Source: a virus (lineage: Duplodnaviria; Caudoviricetes). Taken from it: DNA of 64,000 nt. The stretch lies in IMG/VR virus record IMGVR_UViG_3300031998_000009, positions 32,001-96,000 of that record; one strand, written 5' to 3'. The notes beneath the pieces were generated by a model, which saw nothing but the letters and a program-made list of their open reading frames with translations, was not told the origin of the DNA and searched no databases. Position numbers and translations under genes: made by a program. Shown piece after piece: positions 4,250 to 52,796 of the stretch; within the stretch, counting starts at the first letter, position 1; each line of letters opens with the position of its first letter.

Positions 4250-5695
4250 TCACGAACTTGGTTCCTCGTATCCAGCTACTACTGCACAGATATGAAAACC
4301 GTCATTAAATAACAATATATGAATAACTGACATTGTTGTAATATCTATTTCTGGATTCATTAAATATATTCGAGTACTATCATTTGCTGTAAAGTTTGTC
4401 ATTAGATCTTCTGCAGCAGTTGTATTTGAAGATTTTCTAAATATAATAACAGCGTTATAATCTCTGGGCGTAATGGATTGTATAATTGTAGTAGGATCGC
4501 CGTAAGTTACTGGATCACTCCATGTAGTCGAGCCAATATCCAATACATTAATTGCTGCCACTGTATGATTTTCCAATGTTGTTTCTGTACTGTTTTGAGG
4601 TAATCTAGATAAAGATAATGTAGAGTTATCGGAAGGAATACTAATTGAATCTAATAGAGATACAAGAGATGTTCCATGTTGACATATGACATTACCTTGA
4701 AATCTTCCGTTTCCACTAGTATCAAGAGAAAAAGCATTAGTTCTATGTGTTTCATCAGAACCGTTACCTACAGCAAAAATAGTTCTGTTATAATCGTAAT
4801 TATATTTACCAAATATCGTGACTGTATTAGGATTTGAATATTGTGCACGAAGATTATTACCCCAAACAAAAGACGCATATTTGTAGATACTTACATCACT
4901 ATAAACACCACCTACGGTGTTGAATTTTCCGGCAACATTATTGCCGACTCCGTAACTGTTACATCCTAAAGAATAATCGGCAATACCTGTATAGGTAAAT
5001 CCAGTAGGTACAGGGGGTAAGCTGTCCTTTATTGTGTCCGGAACGTCATTTGGATCACCTATATTAAATGCTGTACTGGCAATACCAAAATTCTTATTAC
5101 CTACACCAAAAGCAGAAGCGTACAGATTAACAGCTACGTTATTATGTTTATATTCGGAAGAGTTATTATCTTCATCGAAAACATAATTGTATATTTCGGC
5201 ACCAGGAGCTCCTGTATAAGTGCTTCCATCTACAGTGACAGATTTACCTGTCATACTCGCACCCACACCAAATATCTTACTATCGTGTCTACGAATGGTA
5301 ATATTATCCGGTTCTATATTACTACCTATACAATCTAGGAACTTCTGACCGTTCCACATAATGGCACGAAAATATTTATTACCTTCACTATCAAGCTGTG
5401 TACACACGAGCATTTTATCTTTAACTCTATAATCAACTGGAATATTGTAATTATGTGCTGGGTCTGTAAAATCTACATTTTGTATATCACTAATATCTAA
5501 TACGTCACATTGTTTTGATTTACCTACACACAAAGATGCAATTTTTGCTGTCTGGGAAGAAGTTTCTCTGATAAAGTAAACACCGTTTGTTTTGATACCA
5601 CCTTCACTTTCAGGTATCTGTGAAAGTGTATCATATGTTATTCTATCTAATATATAAATTTTAGTGGTCTGTGCATCTATTGCCATTCTAATCAT
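4250..5695 (-). CDS. Putative virion fibre/adhesin with YadA-like beta-roll segment
   Basis: ASAFGVGN-type repeats and FAVGNGSDETHRTNAF motif typical of phage fibre proteins. Confidence 0.6.
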   Translation of the reverse strand: MIRMAIDAQTTKIYILDRITYDTLSQIPESEGGIKTNGVYFIRETSSQTAKIASLCVGKSKQCDVLDISDIQNVDFTDPAHNYNIPVDYRVKDKMLVCTQLDSEGNKYFRAIMWNGQKFLDCIGSNIEPDNITIRRHDSKIFGVGASMTGKSVTVDGSTYTGAPGAEIYNYVFDEDNNSSEYKHNNVAVNLYASAFGVGNKNFGIASTAFNIGDPNDVPDTIKDSLPPVPTGFTYTGIADYSLGCNSYGVGNNVAGKFNTVGGVYSDVSIYKYASFVWGNNLRAQYSNPNTVTIFGKYNYDYNRTIFAVGNGSDETHRTNAFSLDTSGNGRFQGNVICQHGTSLVSLLDSISIPSDNSTLSLSRLPQNSTETTLENHTVAAINVLDIGSTTWSDPVTYGDPTTIIQSITPRDYNAVIIFRKSSNTTAAEDLMTNFTANDSTRIYLMNPEIDITTMSVIHILLFNDGFHICAVVAGYEEPSS

Positions 5696-7027: not shown

Positions 7028-7110
7028 AGTATAACATATTTTAGAGGAAATGTCAAGTAGTTACAGAAAAATTCAATAAAAAATGCCCACAAAGATTGTG
7101 AGCATTTTTT
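7028..7110 (-). promoter_or_regulatory. Promoter P2 plus upstream stem-loop
   Basis: TTGACA-17-TATACT; hairpin aaatgcccacaaagattgtgagcattt. Confidence 0.88.
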
Positions 7111-17717: not shown

Positions 17718-19211
17718 TTAAATGCCCATACAGGATAAGAATTTATAATTGTTTGATTCTTTGTATTTTGTTAATTCGTTTATCTTATCATCATGCAAAT
17801 ATAAGAAATTATTAAAATTTTGTTCACATAATTGTTGGTCAAAAGACTCTAGGTCTTTTGTTACATTACTTATTAAGAACGCAGAATATAAATCTCTTTG
17901 TAACTTATGTCCCCCAACAAATGTCCATCTTTCCGACAATGTTTTTGGTGTATATATCTTTGTAATATGATTATACTGACTTGCTTTACATTTTTGTGTA
18001 TTTATCTTATTTAATTGTAGTCCAAAATAATTAAGTTTTCTATTCAGAATTTCCAGTAACATAGCTGGTGCCCTGTTACATATTGATTTTCCAAATCGTT
18101 TCTTTTTCTTACATTTTCCGTCTTTTCTTCTTTCTGTAGGTCTTTTACTTCTTTTTGCTAAACCTGCAAAATTCATTTCCTCGACAAAGAATTGATCACC
18201 TAAAGATAATATAAAATTAGTTAATATATTATGTGATAAATTTCTGGCAACTCTTTGTTTTCTGTTTAATTCTTTTAATTGTTTTTCTAGTTTAAGGTAA
18301 TTTTTTGATTTTATCCATTTATCTCTATTTCCTTTTTTGATTGTTCCGTCTATGTTGAATTTATTTGGATTTGTTGATCTACGACTAATATCTAACTTTC
18401 TCTGAACTATTTTCTTTTCCTGCTCATATTTTTGTGCATTGGATGCAAGTTCTAATAATTCAACACGACTATCAGATACTATTGCTATTGTTGATGTTCC
18501 AATATCAATTCCAACTCTTCCAAACCCAACTGAATATCTGGATTTAACATCTTCCCCTTGAAAAACCATCTGAACATAATACCTTCTTTTACATCTGATG
18601 TATTTTCTGACTATTTTACAATATTTCAAATTGTTTAAGCAAGGAAATAAATGATTATTTAAATAATTTAATGGTTTTCCATTTGTTGGATACTTTATTT
18701 TTAGATTCAATCCTGTCCAATCAATATATTCATTTTTAAAACATATTCCAGTACGGGCTTGTTTTCCACTTAAACTATTAAACTGATTAAATTTCTTAAA
18801 ATGAACTTTTCTATTTTGTTTATGAAAGATAGAACTTATAGATTTCCAAACTCTATCTGCTATTTCCTGACATATCTGTGAATGAAGATGCTTTTTAAAA
18901 TGATGTTGCATCGGTTTTACGTCTTTAACAATATCAAAATGGGTTAATTTATATTCCTTTAATAACTCATTTATTTCTTCCCAAATTAAATCTTTATCAC
19001 AAATTGGATCATGCAATGTTTGAATTAAATTTCTATATCTTTTTGTTTTTAGCATTTCCTTATATCTAATAAGCGTTTTTCCTAGAAGTTTATTAAATAT
19101 ATTTCGTCCACATTCTAATCGTTTATCTATAATATCTTCTTGCCATATTTCAGTAATTAAAGGCAACTCTATCATGAAATAATTATTCTTGACCCTTTTC
19201 ATATGAATCAC
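17718..19211 (-). CDS. tnpB: TnpB RNA-guided nuclease (IS607-associated, long type)
   Basis: RuvC motifs GIDIG, FVEEMNF, QRDLYSA all present; RYYVQMVF wedge strand. Confidence 0.88.
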   Translation of the reverse strand: MIHMKRVKNNYFMIELPLITEIWQEDIIDKRLECGRNIFNKLLGKTLIRYKEMLKTKRYRNLIQTLHDPICDKDLIWEEINELLKEYKLTHFDIVKDVKPMQHHFKKHLHSQICQEIADRVWKSISSIFHKQNRKVHFKKFNQFNSLSGKQARTGICFKNEYIDWTGLNLKIKYPTNGKPLNYLNNHLFPCLNNLKYCKIVRKYIRCKRRYYVQMVFQGEDVKSRYSVGFGRVGIDIGTSTIAIVSDSRVELLELASNAQKYEQEKKIVQRKLDISRRSTNPNKFNIDGTIKKGNRDKWIKSKNYLKLEKQLKELNRKQRVARNLSHNILTNFILSLGDQFFVEEMNFAGLAKRSKRPTERRKDGKCKKKKRFGKSICNRAPAMLLEILNRKLNYFGLQLNKINTQKCKASQYNHITKIYTPKTLSERWTFVGGHKLQRDLYSAFLISNVTKDLESFDQQLCEQNFNNFLYLHDDKINELTKYKESNNYKFLSCMGI

Positions 19212-19506
19212 TCTTTTCAGTTATTAACTCTTTAACTTTGTTCATATGTCTTTTTGAATATAGCTTCATAGAATAGCAATGTAACAAACTTACGATTTCT
19301 TCAAAAATTTCCTCACTGTCCAATTTTTGTGATCCAATTTCACTAACGACAATTATTTCAGTATTAAATCGAAGAAATAAATGTTTAAATAATTCAAATC
19401 CAACTCTTGAAAGTCGATCTTTATATGTAATAATTACCTTTTCTATTTTACCTGCAATAATGTCATCCAGCATTTTGAAGAAATCATTTCTGTTTTCAAA
19501 TGATAT
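19183..19506 (-). pseudogene. tnpA: 5'-truncated IS607 serine recombinase
   Basis: ISFENRNDFFKMLDD...ITYKDRLSRVGF...SMKLYSKR; HTH and catalytic YxRxS missing. Confidence 0.85.
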
Positions 19507-19912
19507 AACTTCTTTTTGTGTTTCCTTCTTTATAGTAACGCCAGGTTCCTTTACTAGGATTAAACAGGTAGATATAGTCTACATCCTGATATGATGAGTT
19601 TTCCATAAATTCTTTCTTGTTTTTGTATTTTCTATAGCCTTCCTCTACCGGATCATCTCCTCTATCTCGGATATAGAAAACAGAAACACCTTTTTGTCTG
19701 TGATCAAAATCATGTCTACCTGATGTAGGTTCCAGTTTTTCATAAATACAACTTGCATTTCCCATATAAATTAACGAGTATATTCTGTCTACGCTTTTAT
19801 AGTGCTCGGATAGCAGTTTTCCCATACGTTCTGGATAACCGTCACAATGTACTCGAATGCTACTTACTTCTTTTGTCTTACTATCAATAATGGCAATAAG
19901 AGCGGCTGTCAT
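19496..19912 (-). CDS. HxDGYP-family phage protein
   Basis: SIRVHCDGYP...GKLL...YIYLF; its stop codon lies in tnpA-derived DNA. Confidence 0.8.
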   Translation of the reverse strand: MTAALIAIIDSKTKEVSSIRVHCDGYPERMGKLLSEHYKSVDRIYSLIYMGNASCIYEKLEPTSGRHDFDHRQKGVSVFYIRDRGDDPVEEGYRKYKNKKEFMENSSYQDVDYIYLFNPSKGTWRYYKEGNTKRSYII

Positions 19913-25447: not shown

Positions 25448-25531
25448 AGTATAACATATTTTATAGAAAATGTCAAGTAGTTTTTGAAATATAGTAAAGA
25501 AAAATCCTCACAAATAAATGTGAAGATTTTG
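25448..25531 (-). promoter_or_regulatory. Promoter P7 plus stem-loop
   Basis: TTGACA-17-TATACT; hairpin aaaatcctcaca...tgtgaagatttt. Confidence 0.88.
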
Positions 25532-25552: not shown

Positions 25553-26098
25553 TTAATTAGTTTCTTTTAACTTTGTTTTAACTTTACCATATTTTTCCAA
25601 TTCATATTTTGTTATTCTGCTTTGTACTTCAGATAGTTTTGTTTTAAATAATTTCATAACAGCTTTTCGAAGATTTTTAGGTTTCATCCCTACAATAGGA
25701 ACAGGTAAAGTAGGTCCATTTTCTGGATGAACATCTTTATGATCCGATAATCGTATAGTATATGAATAAATTTCTTCTAACTTATCTTGTGGAACATCCT
25801 CCGGATGTCTAAATACAATATCAATGTAATTAGATAAACCCCTTGGATTTTTTCTTCGAGAATTACGGGCACTAGCACTTTCTACATAAGAAAATTGTTC
25901 CAATTCCTCTGCAATAGGATCTAAATATCTTGCCCTTATGTACAGACGTGTCTCTACTTGGTCTCTATAGGAGTCACCACATAATATTTCATCTTCGGGT
26001 TCTAATAACTCTTCTTCTAACGGACCTACCGTATCTAGATAAGGTATCATACTTACATAAAGTATATTACTAAAGGATTCACTAATGGTTAATTTCAT
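25553..26098 (-). CDS. Cassette gene B copy 1 (leader MKLTISE; IRxSDH motif)
   Basis: GLSNYIDIVF.HP, Y.IR.SDHK, IVGMKPKN shared with 52812..53360. Confidence 0.85.
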   Translation of the reverse strand: MKLTISESFSNILYVSMIPYLDTVGPLEEELLEPEDEILCGDSYRDQVETRLYIRARYLDPIAEELEQFSYVESASARNSRRKNPRGLSNYIDIVFRHPEDVPQDKLEEIYSYTIRLSDHKDVHPENGPTLPVPIVGMKPKNLRKAVMKLFKTKLSEVQSRITKYELEKYGKVKTKLKETN

Positions 26099-26535
26099 GG
26101 TCTATTTATCCTTTCTAAAAATCTAAACCTTTCTTCTTTGGAAGGAACATATGTTAAAGAACAGATAAAGTTAATATAATCATATTCAACATAACCATAT
26201 TGCTTCATTATATCATAAGTATCACCTAATACAGAATCATAATGTTTATCTTCGTCGTAAAAATAAGTGATATTATTTATATCATTTAATATGATTAGGG
26301 CTGTATCTTTATCCGTAGTACAATCAATCACGTAATATTTAGAATTTACAAAAACAATATAGCTATGGTTACCTTGTTTATGATAAATACTATCATAGTA
26401 GTCAACTGTGTCCGAATATTCTAAAGAGTTTATATCAAGTTCCTGAATTTCCATATTACCCCTATTTATAAGAAACTCGAGACTTTTCTTTATATTTATT
26501 ATATAACTATTTAGAATATTTAACATAACCATCAC
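26095..26535 (-). CDS. Cassette gene A copy 1
   Basis: IKKSL..(L/I)I.R and Y(I)xFVN..xY.ID..T...ITY shared with 53347..53847; 4-nt overlap with gene B. Confidence 0.8.
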   Translation of the reverse strand: MMVMLNILNSYIINIKKSLEFLINRGNMEIQELDINSLEYSDTVDYYDSIYHKQGNHSYIVFVNSKYYVIDCTTDKDTALIILNDINNITYFYDEDKHYDSVLGDTYDIMKQYGYVEYDYINFICSLTYVPSKEERFRFLERINRP

Positions 26536-26560
26536 CCCTTGGTAATAATGTATTTATTAT

Positions 26561-26637
26561 AGTATAACACATTATTATCAAAAAGTCAATATGTAAATAT
26601 AACAAAAACCACACATAAAAATGTATGGTTTTTGTTG
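26561..26637 (-). promoter_or_regulatory. Promoter P8 plus stem-loop
   Basis: TTGACT-17-TATACT; hairpin caaaaacca...tggtttttg. Confidence 0.85.
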
Positions 26638-26644
26638 TAATAGT

Positions 26645-27196
26645 TTAATTAAGTCTATCAAATGCTTGTTTTAATTCTGGTGTTTCAGATAACTCAAAGT
26701 CTCTTGTAAATAAGGTTCCGAACGAAAATTTATATTTATGATTATAACCGTCTTTAGTTAAATCGTTAGCAGATTTACTATCAGGAGGAAGAAATCCAAA
26801 ACAGTAAATCCATGGATAGATATAGTTGTCATCTCTATTTACTTTATCACTAAATAAAGATAAGTCAAAATCATCTTCATCATATTCATCTAACCCTATG
26901 GATTCTGTTCCAAATGAAAAATAGTCTACTCCCATTCCCCTATTATAAAATCCTATATTCGTTTGTATAAATTGTTTCTGGTCTTCGTACCAACCTGATC
27001 GAAATGCTTCTTTTATCATATCTATGTGGATATGGTCCCATGCACCACATATCATATACAAGTCTGCTTGAGCATCATAAAGTATCCGATATTCTTTAGG
27101 TTTATTAGCACATAGATTTGCTATGTCACCTGCATAATCAGTTATAAGCATATCGGAACCTAATTTTTGCAGACGTTCTTGAATATGAAGTTTCAT
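26645..27196 (-). CDS. Leader-bearing hypothetical protein (MKLHIQE|R)
   Basis: ORF and leader motif. Confidence 0.8.
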   Translation of the reverse strand: MKLHIQERLQKLGSDMLITDYAGDIANLCANKPKEYRILYDAQADLYMICGAWDHIHIDMIKEAFRSGWYEDQKQFIQTNIGFYNRGMGVDYFSFGTESIGLDEYDEDDFDLSLFSDKVNRDDNYIYPWIYCFGFLPPDSKSANDLTKDGYNHKYKFSFGTLFTRDFELSETPELKQAFDRLN

Positions 27197-31912: not shown

Positions 31913-32049
31913 AAATAAAACATCCTTTCTAATAATCATAATCATAATCAAAATAATATGGTTTAACCTTATAATTAAGGTTTTACATTATTTAATGTAA
32001 ATTACTGTTTTTTGATATTTTATTTTGTTTATTTTATAAAACTTTATTT

Positions 32050-43291: not shown

Positions 43292-43383
43292 AGTATAACA
43301 TATTTTAATGTAAATGTCAAGTGATTCCTAGAAAAAAGATGATAAAATATCTCACAATGTTTATAATAAAACATTGTGAGATT
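43292..43383 (-). promoter_or_regulatory. Promoter P11 plus stem-loop
   Basis: TTGACA-17-TATACT; hairpin atctcacaatgttt...aaacattgtgagat. Confidence 0.88.
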
Positions 43384-50337: not shown

Positions 50338-50419
50338 AGTATAACATATTTATAGTGAAAAGTCAAGTGTTTTTGAAAATTTATAATAAAAAACTCCACG
50401 AACTTATCGTGGAGTTTTT
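50338..50419 (-). promoter_or_regulatory. Promoter P14 plus stem-loop
   Basis: TTGACT-17-TATACT; hairpin aaaaactccacga...tcgtggagttttt. Confidence 0.88.
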
Positions 50420-50439: not shown

Positions 50440-52641
50440 TTACTTGTTTTGATTCTTATAGAACAGCTTTCTGTAATAAATAATATCTTTGGGCATATGC
50501 TCTCTTTCTTCTTTACTGTATTCACTGTATACTTTCTTCATAAAATCGTAAAACAAATTAGATTCAGGTGTTAGTAGTTGTCCGGTTTTATCGATATAAC
50601 CTTTTCTTAATACAATCATTGCTATTTTTCTCATATGCTTCCAATGATTGTAGTAATCGAGTTTAAGTTTTGTCATATAACCAACACTATCCTCAATAAC
50701 AAAACCTTCAATAACTCTACCACCAAAAGTATAATCAGGCTGTAAAACCTCATTATACCAATCATAGAAATCAGACCAATTATTGATCACAGCTGCCTTT
50801 GTTTTAACTACTAGACCTAATTCTTTACCTACCTCTACCACTTCTTCGTAATCGTGTTGTTTGAATTCAAGACTATTATCAATGATAGAAAGTAGGAATA
50901 GCTCATTTTCTGGATATTCAATGATGTGTGGATCGTGTACTTGGTCTACACATTCAAATACAAGAGTAACATTGTTTTCCTTACAATACTCTTTTACCCA
51001 CTGTACCTTATCCTCTGACAATTTTTGGTAAAGCATTATCTTTAACCAGTCTGCATAGGAACCTACTGGACAGGACTTTGTGGTAATGAACAGATCATCT
51101 GTCTCTTCGTTATATGAAACAAGACCCAGATATCCATTTTCCTTCACATAGCAGGTAACTGGAAATTTAAGTTTGTATTGTAACATATCAAATTGAGTTT
51201 CCGGTCTTTCATTGATATTGAAAAACTTACTGTATCCACGACACATAACTTTCATTGTAGCTGTGTTAATATACAGTCCTCTTGCTACGATTGTTTGTTC
51301 ATTCCAAATCTTATCATAAAAAGCATCTTTTGTAAAGTTGAACGAAGAAATGTTACCATACTGTTTTTCCTGAATGTGTCTGTTCTTACGAAGTTTCATA
51401 ACAGCATCTGCCATATCAGAATTGGTAATTGTTTTCTTTTCCTCGACCTCTTCAATAGGCTTGAATACCGTATTCTGAATAGTTACTTCATGGAACCCTT
51501 CTTTATCCAATTCGACAATACGAAGACATCCACCGTGTTCTATCTTACCCTCAAGATTAAATGTTCTTTCCTCGATGCACATATCAGAGTATCTAATATT
51601 TCTGTGGCCGTGAATTTGGTACATATTAGATTCTGTATTTTCTTTCCAATATTTAGCAACGTCTTCATAATCTTTGTAATCACCTACACCACGAATCATT
51701 TGTTCAGTGGATATAAATGTCAGATTATCAGGCATTGTGGAAAGACCACCATGAGTTACTAAAACATCTTTTCCATCATATGTATACCAAGCACATTGAC
51801 CACATTTTCTGTAAAGTTGTCTAATGTCTTTCAAATCAATATCGGAATTTTGAAGTTGTTTTTTCGTTACAAATTCAAATTCTTTAGAATCAGCAATACC
51901 TTCATTAGCATATATCCACAACCATCTTTCATGGTTACCCTCAAGAAGTAGTACATTAGGTCGTTTCACAGCTTCAATAAAAAACTTTACAACTTCTGCA
52001 TTTTCTAGTCCTCTATCAATAATGTCACCTACAAAGATATACATATAGTTGTCGTTAAAACCATTTTTGAAGTATTCCATTAGGGCAGTATAACAACCGT
52101 GAATATCTCCAATGTGTACGATCTTCTCATATTTATTCAAGTCAAACTTCTTCATCCAAATAGTATCAAGTTCTTCCGGTTTAATAGCTTTAATACCTGC
52201 TGGAATTTTTTGAGTAGCGAATCTAGAATAAATATTCTCAAGTGCTGATTCAGGTACCCACTTAAACATAGGACGAAGTTTATTCCTTCTTTTGCATTCT
52301 TCCAGTGGAACATCTGTCATATCAATACAATAGATTCTGTAACGATATGTTTCACACATATTCTTATAACGATTCATTTCTATTGTTTTACTATTTGTAG
52401 CATCAATGACAGTAAACTCACCACGTTTCATTCTAGTTTCGAGAAGTTTGAATAGCATAGACCATACATCTTTTTCATTTTTCTGACTGATTCCATATGT
52501 TCCATTTACACTAAGTTGTGGTGTAGAACACAGAACACGAATATCATCAGCACAAAGAGTATACGGTTTAAGTCCATGTTCCTCAATAAATGTTGATTTA
52601 CCACATCCAGGTGCTCCACGAAGTAAAAGTAAAACTCTCAT
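50440..52641 (-). CDS. RNA repair enzyme: polynucleotide kinase + metallophosphoesterase + Rnl1-type RNA ligase
   Basis: GAPGCGKS and IDATN; GDIHG, GDIIDRG, GNHE, HGG, HGH; RGYSKFFN, KENG, EGFV, KLK. Confidence 0.92.
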   Translation of the reverse strand: MRVLLLLRGAPGCGKSTFIEEHGLKPYTLCADDIRVLCSTPQLSVNGTYGISQKNEKDVWSMLFKLLETRMKRGEFTVIDATNSKTIEMNRYKNMCETYRYRIYCIDMTDVPLEECKRRNKLRPMFKWVPESALENIYSRFATQKIPAGIKAIKPEELDTIWMKKFDLNKYEKIVHIGDIHGCYTALMEYFKNGFNDNYMYIFVGDIIDRGLENAEVVKFFIEAVKRPNVLLLEGNHERWLWIYANEGIADSKEFEFVTKKQLQNSDIDLKDIRQLYRKCGQCAWYTYDGKDVLVTHGGLSTMPDNLTFISTEQMIRGVGDYKDYEDVAKYWKENTESNMYQIHGHRNIRYSDMCIEERTFNLEGKIEHGGCLRIVELDKEGFHEVTIQNTVFKPIEEVEEKKTITNSDMADAVMKLRKNRHIQEKQYGNISSFNFTKDAFYDKIWNEQTIVARGLYINTATMKVMCRGYSKFFNINERPETQFDMLQYKLKFPVTCYVKENGYLGLVSYNEETDDLFITTKSCPVGSYADWLKIMLYQKLSEDKVQWVKEYCKENNVTLVFECVDQVHDPHIIEYPENELFLLSIIDNSLEFKQHDYEEVVEVGKELGLVVKTKAAVINNWSDFYDWYNEVLQPDYTFGGRVIEGFVIEDSVGYMTKLKLDYYNHWKHMRKIAMIVLRKGYIDKTGQLLTPESNLFYDFMKKVYSEYSKEEREHMPKDIIYYRKLFYKNQNK

Positions 52642-52796
52642 TTATTTTCCTCCTCTATTTTAATTCCATTTGATTTAGCAAAATCATGAACCAGCTGTTC
52701 CAAAGATCTACTAGGTCCTCCTTTTTCTCTATCTTCATATATCATATCAGTTATAGTATCGGCATCCAATAAAGAAAGCACTTCCGAATAGTTCAT
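52638..52796 (-). CDS. Small hypothetical protein (52 aa, below ORF-track cutoff)
   Basis: MNYSEVLSLLDAD...IEEENK*, GGAGG RBS, ATGA overlap with next gene. Confidence 0.65.
   Translation of the reverse strand: MNYSEVLSLLDADTITDMIYEDREKGGPSRSLEQLVHDFAKSNGIKIEEENK

Follow-up and report, generated by a model that had tools for sequence, protein, structure and literature searches.

Two adjacent genes, designated here as A and B, form a real, conserved, and tightly coupled unit of related phages. The second of these genes encodes a protein that is linked, if weakly, by sequence to AcrIIA5, that is, to an anti-CRISPR protein (a Cas9 inhibitor) of Streptococcus phage D4276 (PDB 6LKF; phrog_14794). 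The unit is found twice in a stretch of viral DNA of 64,000 nucleotides (nt), called here the ‘window’, which consists of positions 32,001 to 96,000 of IMG/VR virus record IMGVR_UViG_3300031998_000009 (Caudoviricetes). That record is a 198.5-kb contig of 33% G+C, representing a large, uncultured T4-like phage. What began as an observation on this one stretch is confirmed, and it widens into an A-B(-C) module that is conserved among large, uncultured T4-like phages, with C being a further gene that is considered below. Our reading, offered tentatively, is that the pair may consist of an AcrIIA5-like counter-defence protein (B) together with an obligatory acidic partner (A). A counter-defence module is, at the least, more likely than a toxin-immunity pair, i.e., than the nuclease-like effector and cognate inhibitor which a preliminary description of this DNA had proposed.

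The two cassettes are both located on the minus strand and lie 27 kb apart, at 26526-25553 (A1/B1) and 53793-52812 (A2/B2). Gene A1 (26095-26526) encodes 143 amino acids (aa), with an isoelectric point (pI) of 4.6 and a tyrosine content of 12%, and has an ATG start behind AAGGGGTGA. The start of gene B1 (25553-26098; 181 aa, with MKLTISE as its leader) overlaps the A1 stop by 4 nt (ATGA). Gene A2 (53347-53793; 148 aa, pI 4.5) similarly has an ATG start, behind GGAAGGAGG, and the start of gene B2 (52812-53354; 180 aa, beginning MIKLLHE) overlaps the A2 end by 8 nt. Identity amounts to 40% across 167 aa between the proteins B1 and B2 (E 7e-45) and to 35% across 106 aa between A1 and A2 (E 4e-11). 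Genome-wide, i.e., across all 198.5 kb, there are exactly two copies each of A and B. The duplicated, coupled A-B cassette of the preliminary description thus stands, with open reading frames (ORFs), coordinates, gene order, and overlap of A stop with B start all as had been described, and with the shared motifs it quoted present in the A1/A2 and B1/B2 alignments.

An exhaustive profile search of 1.84 billion representatives yielded B homologs that form 33 clusters at 50% identity. A is much rarer as well as more diverged, with 8 matches among 5.8 billion proteins. These homologs derive from metagenomic assemblies (ENA, Logan, IMG/VR), and their contexts were fetched and scanned with hidden Markov models (HMMs) of A and B. 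Scans for B in JGI metagenome contigs and in GTDB genomes found no relative. Counting the window's two, 9 cassettes, from at least 7 phages, have a recognisable A immediately ahead of B, with intergenic distances ranging from -11 to +7 nt. Co-occurrence in other phages, to which the preliminary description had pointed as informative, takes the form of joint presence in these 9 cassettes, of one orphan A (contig L011, with neither B nor a B remnant within 5 kb), and of no orphan B. That is, no B lacking an adjacent upstream small gene was seen in the fetched contexts, with three B-bearing contigs too short to judge.

The arrangement of the unit varies among these phages, though always with A-type genes ahead of B where A is recognised beside B. 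It is A139-B178 in L006, A136-B181 in L007 and L008, and A242-A'134-B185 in L013 and L014. In L005 and L012 a 240-aa protein with a C-terminal A domain is followed by a fusion of B with C (B::C), and L016 (2110-4679) carries a tandem cassette, A133-B185-A137-B::X392. The long forms of A (240-250 aa) possess an additional N-terminal domain of no assigned family. The most distant B, that of L018, has 1 nt upstream of it a gene for a 136-aa basic protein which the A profile does not recognise.

In maximum-likelihood trees, the window's second cassette (W2) groups with L006 both for A (98/98) and for B (84/79), and L005, L012, and L013 form a group in both trees as well. The window's first cassette (W1) is not the sister of W2. 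The window copies thus are old paralogs or instead separate acquisitions, and, as judged from these trees, are not a recent duplication. Agreement between the trees on supported groups indicates also that the cassette moves as a unit. Branches are longer for A than for B, i.e., A diverges faster. Nevertheless, strict adjacency and coupling are kept even at 20-35% A identity, and this argues for a joint function.

The link of B to AcrIIA5 emerges from several searches. A profile of B, as compared with 177,635 PDB sequences, has a single match, which is AcrIIA5 (6LKF; E 0.0068). Profile positions 102-169 in this match align with AcrIIA5 residues 49-114, such that Y-x-I-R-F-S-D-H of B is placed against Y-E-I-R-L-S-N-H of AcrIIA5. 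For comparisons between families, an AcrIIA5 set was assembled from Streptococcus phage genes along with 120 homologs that were fetched. Using hhalign, 26 B domains versus 17 non-redundant AcrIIA5 proteins gave a probability of 56% and a score of 32.9, versus probabilities of at most 1% and scores of at most 17.4 for the controls (one reversed and 30 column-shuffled). A relaxed version of the B/AcrIIA5 alignment is collinear back to helix alpha1.

The match is seen from the opposite direction as well. With an AcrIIA5 HMM run against 2,405 sequences (the six-frame ORFs of this genome, ORFs of other loci, and the B family), proteins of the B family rank first (E 2.7e-5, 2.9e-5, and 4e-4), and no six-frame ORF among the genome's 1,623 scores better than B1 (E 0.07). 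One B family member, P0020, has phrog_14794 as its sole match among 38,880 PHROGs (E 5.7e-4); AcrIIA5 itself matches that PHROG over its full length, at 4.5e-89. A fold search of BFVD weakly lists an AcrIIA5 homolog, ORF56 of phage O1205.

An AlphaFold2 model of B1, built with 17 homologs (predicted local distance difference test score, pLDDT, of 86; predicted template modelling score of 0.77), describes, behind a conserved acidic N-terminal region, an alpha/beta core bearing the motif Y-x-I-R-L-S-D-H. The leader (residues 1-7) is disordered and confidence is low for residues 8-30, with pLDDT of 44-61 across residues 1-45. The core then consists of a helix (47-66), two strands (72-79 and 89-96), a second helix (104-111), two further strands (112-118 and 130-134), and, at the end, a helix of some length (140-170). 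This order of strands and helices is collinear with the alpha1-beta-beta-beta3-loop-beta4-alpha2 of AcrIIA5, and His120 of B aligns with AcrIIA5 His66, at the start of the beta3-beta4 loop. His120 is among the invariant residues of B, which are E29, Y44, R51, S89, Y91, Y111, R116, S118, and H120.

Taken together, the profile matches make it somewhat more probable than not that the core of B is homologous with AcrIIA5. This bears directly upon the nature of R-x-S-D-H, which the preliminary description had viewed as the possible catalytic site of a nuclease-like B. Profile and structure searches with B found no nuclease, PD-(D/E)xK, BECR/RelE, or other toxin family or fold, and that portion of the earlier interpretation is not sustained. 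The motif instead lies at the heart of the match to AcrIIA5, a match that is weak yet reciprocal, and this shifts the reading of B from a toxin towards an anti-defence inhibitor. The suggestion that the pair is not a described system has fared better, as Pfam, PHROGs, NCBIfam, and PADLOC searches with A1, A2, B1, B2, C, and the fused forms returned nothing above noise, and the ESM Atlas offered no usable lead for either A or B.

A number of observations weigh against this AcrIIA5-based reading. The match is marginal by any single measure and covers approximately 65 of 140 positions. B1 and B2, unlike P0020, have no significant match to PHROGs. In Foldseek and two further structure searches, VIA wide and pdb_via, the highest-ranked matches to the B model do not include 6LKF. 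Predicted strands number four in B, along with three long helices, versus seven strands in AcrIIA5. The N-terminal 45 residues of B are acidic (pI 4.05, net charge -8), with the C-terminal helix strongly basic, versus a basic, essential disordered N-terminal tail in AcrIIA5. The gene found upstream of acrIIA5 in Streptococcus phages has no similarity to A. Lastly, no B homolog is seen in cultured phages, as blastn and tblastn searches of 50,697 such records found nothing.

What is reported for AcrIIA5 nonetheless provides a basis for imagining what B might do. The AcrIIA5 fold consists of seven strands and two helices and was described as novel; the disordered N-terminal tail of the protein is needed for Cas9 inhibition, and its beta3-beta4 loop is mobile (PMC7367191). 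The novelty of that fold fits with B's want of fold matches in the PDB. AcrIIA5 forms no stable complex with Cas9 yet leaves Cas9 inactive and its guide RNA truncated, and may act enzymatically (PMC6910239). A mutant altered at H66, N70, and H73 loses activity on all of the Cas9s tested except SpyCas9 (PMC6910239, PMC11662660).

The proposed A-B system, by analogy, would be a two-protein counter-defence module, inherited as a unit and transcribed, presumably early during infection, from a strong host-type promoter. B would be the active component, a distant member of an AcrIIA5 superfamily, and it would disable some nucleic-acid-targeting immune enzyme of the host, such as Cas9 with its guide RNA or instead another nuclease. 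A would be B's small, acidic, obligatory partner, made along with B by means of translational coupling and serving as holder or neutraliser of B, or else as co-inhibitor. The two old paralogs would, most simply, have been kept for different target specificities. Cassette 2 probably shares its transcript with an enzyme for RNA repair, of the T4 Pnk/Rnl1 kind, for which a counter-defence function is known, and this is counted in favour of a counter-defence role for the pair.

Protein A is acidic throughout its family (pI 4.2-5.2) and is invariant mainly at hydrophobic residues, a combination which fits with a binding protein rather than with an enzyme. Its structure model is confident yet matches no known fold, and family and fold searches found in A no antitoxin-type DNA-binding domain (helix-turn-helix, ribbon-helix-helix, or AbrB). 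A partner role for A is compatible with the coupling, with the strict adjacency, with the faster evolution of A, and with there being only a single orphan A. Two closely related A proteins match an ‘internal head protein’ family (phrog_7673; E 0.0066 and 0.013), and that assignment was set aside as too weak.

Were B indeed a distant sister of AcrIIA5, then its retention of the Y-x-I-R-x-S-x-H strand, loop, and helix would mark that site as the functional core of AcrIIA5, a protein suspected of acting enzymatically (PMC6910239). The superfamily, furthermore, would widen beyond small Streptococcus phages so as to include large T4-like phages from uncultured communities of the gut. Particularly, the partner A, the fusions of B, and the leader or linker motif described below bear on whether anti-defence proteins need partners or travel within the capsid.

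Transcription of the cassettes involves a promoter type that is by no means private to them. Cassette 1 is headed by TTGACT-N17-TATACT (26561-26589, minus strand) and cassette 2 by TTGACA-N17-TATACT (53827-53855, minus strand), in both cases with a TG extension. Each cassette thus does have its own copy of a repeated promoter, as the preliminary description had it, but that promoter is not cassette-specific. The near-invariant extended -10 form, TTGACW-N14-TGTTATAMT, occurs at 16 sites in the window versus 0.18 expected, all on the minus strand and spanning 3837-63825 (e.g., 7028-7056 and 43292-43320). A looser pattern, TG-N-TATA[AC]T, has 31 minus-strand sites genome-wide, with almost none at roughly 120-170 kb. 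Nucleotide-metabolism genes too are headed by this promoter. As for late expression, a conserved late-type promoter was looked for at the cassettes and none was found. The motif TATAAATA does occur near the 5' end of both A1 and A2, but it is common in this AT-rich genome and lacks conservation among A homologs from other phages; as a late promoter inside of A, giving rise to B-only late transcripts, it was rejected.

Cassette 1 forms a transcription unit by itself, closed by its own intrinsic terminator (25501-25530, minus strand). A two-way terminator hairpin (53877-53912) separates cassette 2 from thyX, and the first terminator after cassette 2 is found at 50389-50419 (minus strand). With none before that position, cassette 2 probably is the head of an operon which runs on into a 52-aa ORF (52638-52796, minus strand; no terminator lies between it and B2) and then into the RNA-repair gene (50440-52641, minus strand), such that cassette 2, the 52-aa ORF, and the RNA-repair gene probably are co-transcribed. 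The latter encodes a 733-aa fusion in which a P-loop kinase (AAA_33), a calcineurin-like metallophosphatase, and a T4 Rnl1-type RNA ligase are joined in one polypeptide, i.e., an RNA-repair fusion of a type that counteracts anticodon nucleases.

A different issue is that of where B acts from, for B could be imagined to reside inside the phage head, as Ip1-3 and Alt of phage T4 do. Its seven-residue MKLxIxE would then target B to the prohead core, cleavage by the T4-type protease would follow the glutamate, and B would be injected along with the phage DNA. This possibility is compatible with B being either an anti-defence inhibitor or a toxin, and it seems to us doubtful, if somewhat less so than the other alternatives considered below. 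In B1 and B2 alike, residues 5-7 read [LI]-x-E, with B1's leader disordered in the model, and K-[LIVM]-x-[LIVM]-x-[ED] begins within the first five residues of 9 of the 33 B representatives, with looser forms in others. The preliminary description's claim of an [LIV]-x-E leader on B and not on A holds more widely, in that the leader recurs in the B family and none is seen in A. Eight ORFs of this genome start with the leader-type pattern.K[LIVM].[LIVM].[ED].

About a third of B homologs, on the other hand, are without an N-terminal leader, and this counts against B as head cargo. Those leaderless forms carry the same motif, typically as N-E-S-[IL]-K-L-R-I-R-E, just after the B domain, followed by a second domain or by the contig end. 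The motif, which stand-alone genes bear at the N-terminus (MKLRIKE...), is at about 176-190 in P0013, P0014, P0019, P0026, P0027, P0029, and P0031, and as a linker of B to a further domain it resembles the protease sites of small polyproteins. The second domain can be that of gene C, whose N-terminal domain (NKPK-x-YRILYD...D-x-W...DA...H-x-DM) is fused to the B C-terminus in other phages. Gene C itself (26645-27196, minus strand; 183 aa, beginning MKLHIQE) lies directly upstream of cassette 1, as one of three paralogs in the genome (the others at genome positions 4642-5652 and 178677-179861, both minus strand). Elsewhere C is B-fused or beside A-B, at L005 6523-7188, L012 1826-2485, L013 6120-6827, and L016 1119-1871. 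A profile of the C domain found nothing among PDB sequences, and C belongs to no known family.

The genome also encodes a prohead protease of the T4 gp21 type (Peptidase_S77, PF03420; 51 bits versus a cut-off of 27; genome positions 169838-170350, minus strand). In T4, a number of unrelated anti-restriction proteins are directed into the head by propeptides of 7-19 residues which end with L/I-x-E and which subsequently are removed (PMC9026906, PMC12373910), with Ip1, Ip2, and Ip3 each blocking one variant of GmrSD (PMC12373910). Recurrence of the leader, the linker in B fusions, and the T4-type protease in combination make packaging of B plausible. Nonetheless, the sole promoter seen is of a generic host type which nucleotide-metabolism genes share, no conserved late-type promoter was found, and the leader might just as well have a structural role or one in the start of translation.

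Perhaps, alternatively, A and B are simply two early ‘ORFan’ proteins with roles in host takeover or replication, their linkage a matter of operon inheritance and the resemblance of B to AcrIIA5 a chance motif. Most small genes behind the repeated promoters are, after all, without known family, the AcrIIA5 match is partial and is not confirmed by structure comparison, and linked genes co-diverge whatever their function. Three different searches nevertheless reach one and the same family, from among 177,635 PDB sequences and 38,880 PHROGs, with controls far below, and adjacency together with coupling persists at 20-35% A identity; we thus consider this explanation to be rather unlikely. Even should the anti-defence reading fail, the pair would still be a clean candidate for a new two-protein phage module, one with confident models and no known folds.

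Less probable still is that B is a harmful protein, perhaps catalytic via R-x-S-D-H, with A as its cognate neutraliser, encoded first. Here the tight coupling and the antitoxin-first order of every cassette do fit, as too does an asymmetry that would be expected, that is, one orphan A (L011) versus no B without a small gene directly upstream. A evolves faster than B, A is acidic versus the strongly basic C-terminal helix of B, B is invariant at the polar residues R116, S118, and H120, and AcrIIA5 itself, which forms no stable Cas9 complex and leaves a truncated single-guide RNA, may be enzymatic (PMC6910239). The nuclease-toxin part of the idea is without support, however, with no toxin or antitoxin family or fold detected. 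From the preliminary description there accordingly survive the conserved, coupled order of A then B and the leader of B, but not the nuclease toxin, an antitoxin domain in A, or a promoter private to the cassette. Combining these possibilities, i.e., a virion-packaged, injected B which is either an AcrIIA5-superfamily inhibitor or an R-x-S-x-H enzyme, an A which holds or neutralises B within the producing cell, and KLxIxE as a general cargo signal and protease site, would by analogy with T4 be conceivable, though only as a distinctly improbable scheme.

Other features of this genome and its relatives may be noted. A resolvase-family (PF00239) segment at window positions 19186-19578 (minus strand) shares 95% protein identity with L008 4984-5634, on a contig that otherwise is only about 40% related, which suggests that the PF00239 gene is a recently exchanged mobile gene; the window's resolvase seems to be the C-terminal part only. 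The ThyX homolog next to cassette 2 (53918-55180, minus strand) is, at 420 aa, unusually long, with Pfam Thy1 covering only 34-185 and the C-terminal half having no assignment. Approximately 1 kb upstream of A-B in L007 (2492-3007) and L008 (2083-2601) is a 171-aa ORF with the GmrSD N-terminal (DUF262) domain only. A QueC homolog is encoded at genome positions 124876-125508 (minus strand; 172 bits), and DpdA was not detected in the genome by the Pfam TGT model at E 0.001.

It remains to compare A-B with known systems, first of all with AcrIIA5, to which we return as the preferred reference for B. Both proteins display a Y-x-[IV]-R-[LF]-S-[DN]-H strand followed by a variable loop, the next strand, and a long helix; both have a poorly ordered N-terminal region before this core; and each is a small phage protein whose gene follows a strong promoter and which is without other known relatives. 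B differs in being about 40 residues longer, in possessing an additional helix, and in having no counterpart of strands beta6-beta7. B comes, moreover, from roughly 200-kb T4-like phages rather than from 40-kb Streptococcus siphophages, and is preceded by A (recognisable in the 9 cassettes), which AcrIIA5 is not. The gp111-acrIIA5 and gp111-acrIIA6 loci of Streptococcus thermophilus phages do, however, as with A-B, consist of a small conserved gene directly upstream of the acr gene within a short, promoter-driven unit. That gp111-type gene (D4276_027, phrog_8487) is not similar to A, and is associated with several different acr genes, A with B alone.

Type II toxin-antitoxin cassettes and those of polymorphic toxins with their immunity proteins likewise consist of two small, coupled genes with the putative neutraliser first, the first gene evolving faster, an orphan copy existing, and several diverged cassettes per genome. 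For A-B, by contrast, no toxin or antitoxin family or fold was detected, nor any DNA-binding domain in A; in polymorphic toxin systems, furthermore, the immunity gene follows that of the toxin. With the polyvalent proteins of Iyer et al. 2017 (PMC5512222), at least as far as those multidomain conflict proteins are considered here, the fusion of B to varying second domains is a point of resemblance, though B fusions have two domains only and none that is recognised as a known anti-defence domain. Lastly, T4, with its Ip1-Ip3 and Alt, shares with this phage a T4-type prohead protease and short leaders ending in [LI]-x-E, the Alt propeptide also being of 7 residues. The internal proteins of T4 and the leader-bearing proteins of this genome are, in addition, unrelated proteins having only the leader in common, with diverged copies explicable by target diversity (PMC9026906, PMC12373910). 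B and T4 Ip1-3 differ in that they have no sequence similarity, the Ips are without an obligatory upstream partner gene, and B has a host-type promoter and a packaging that is predicted only.
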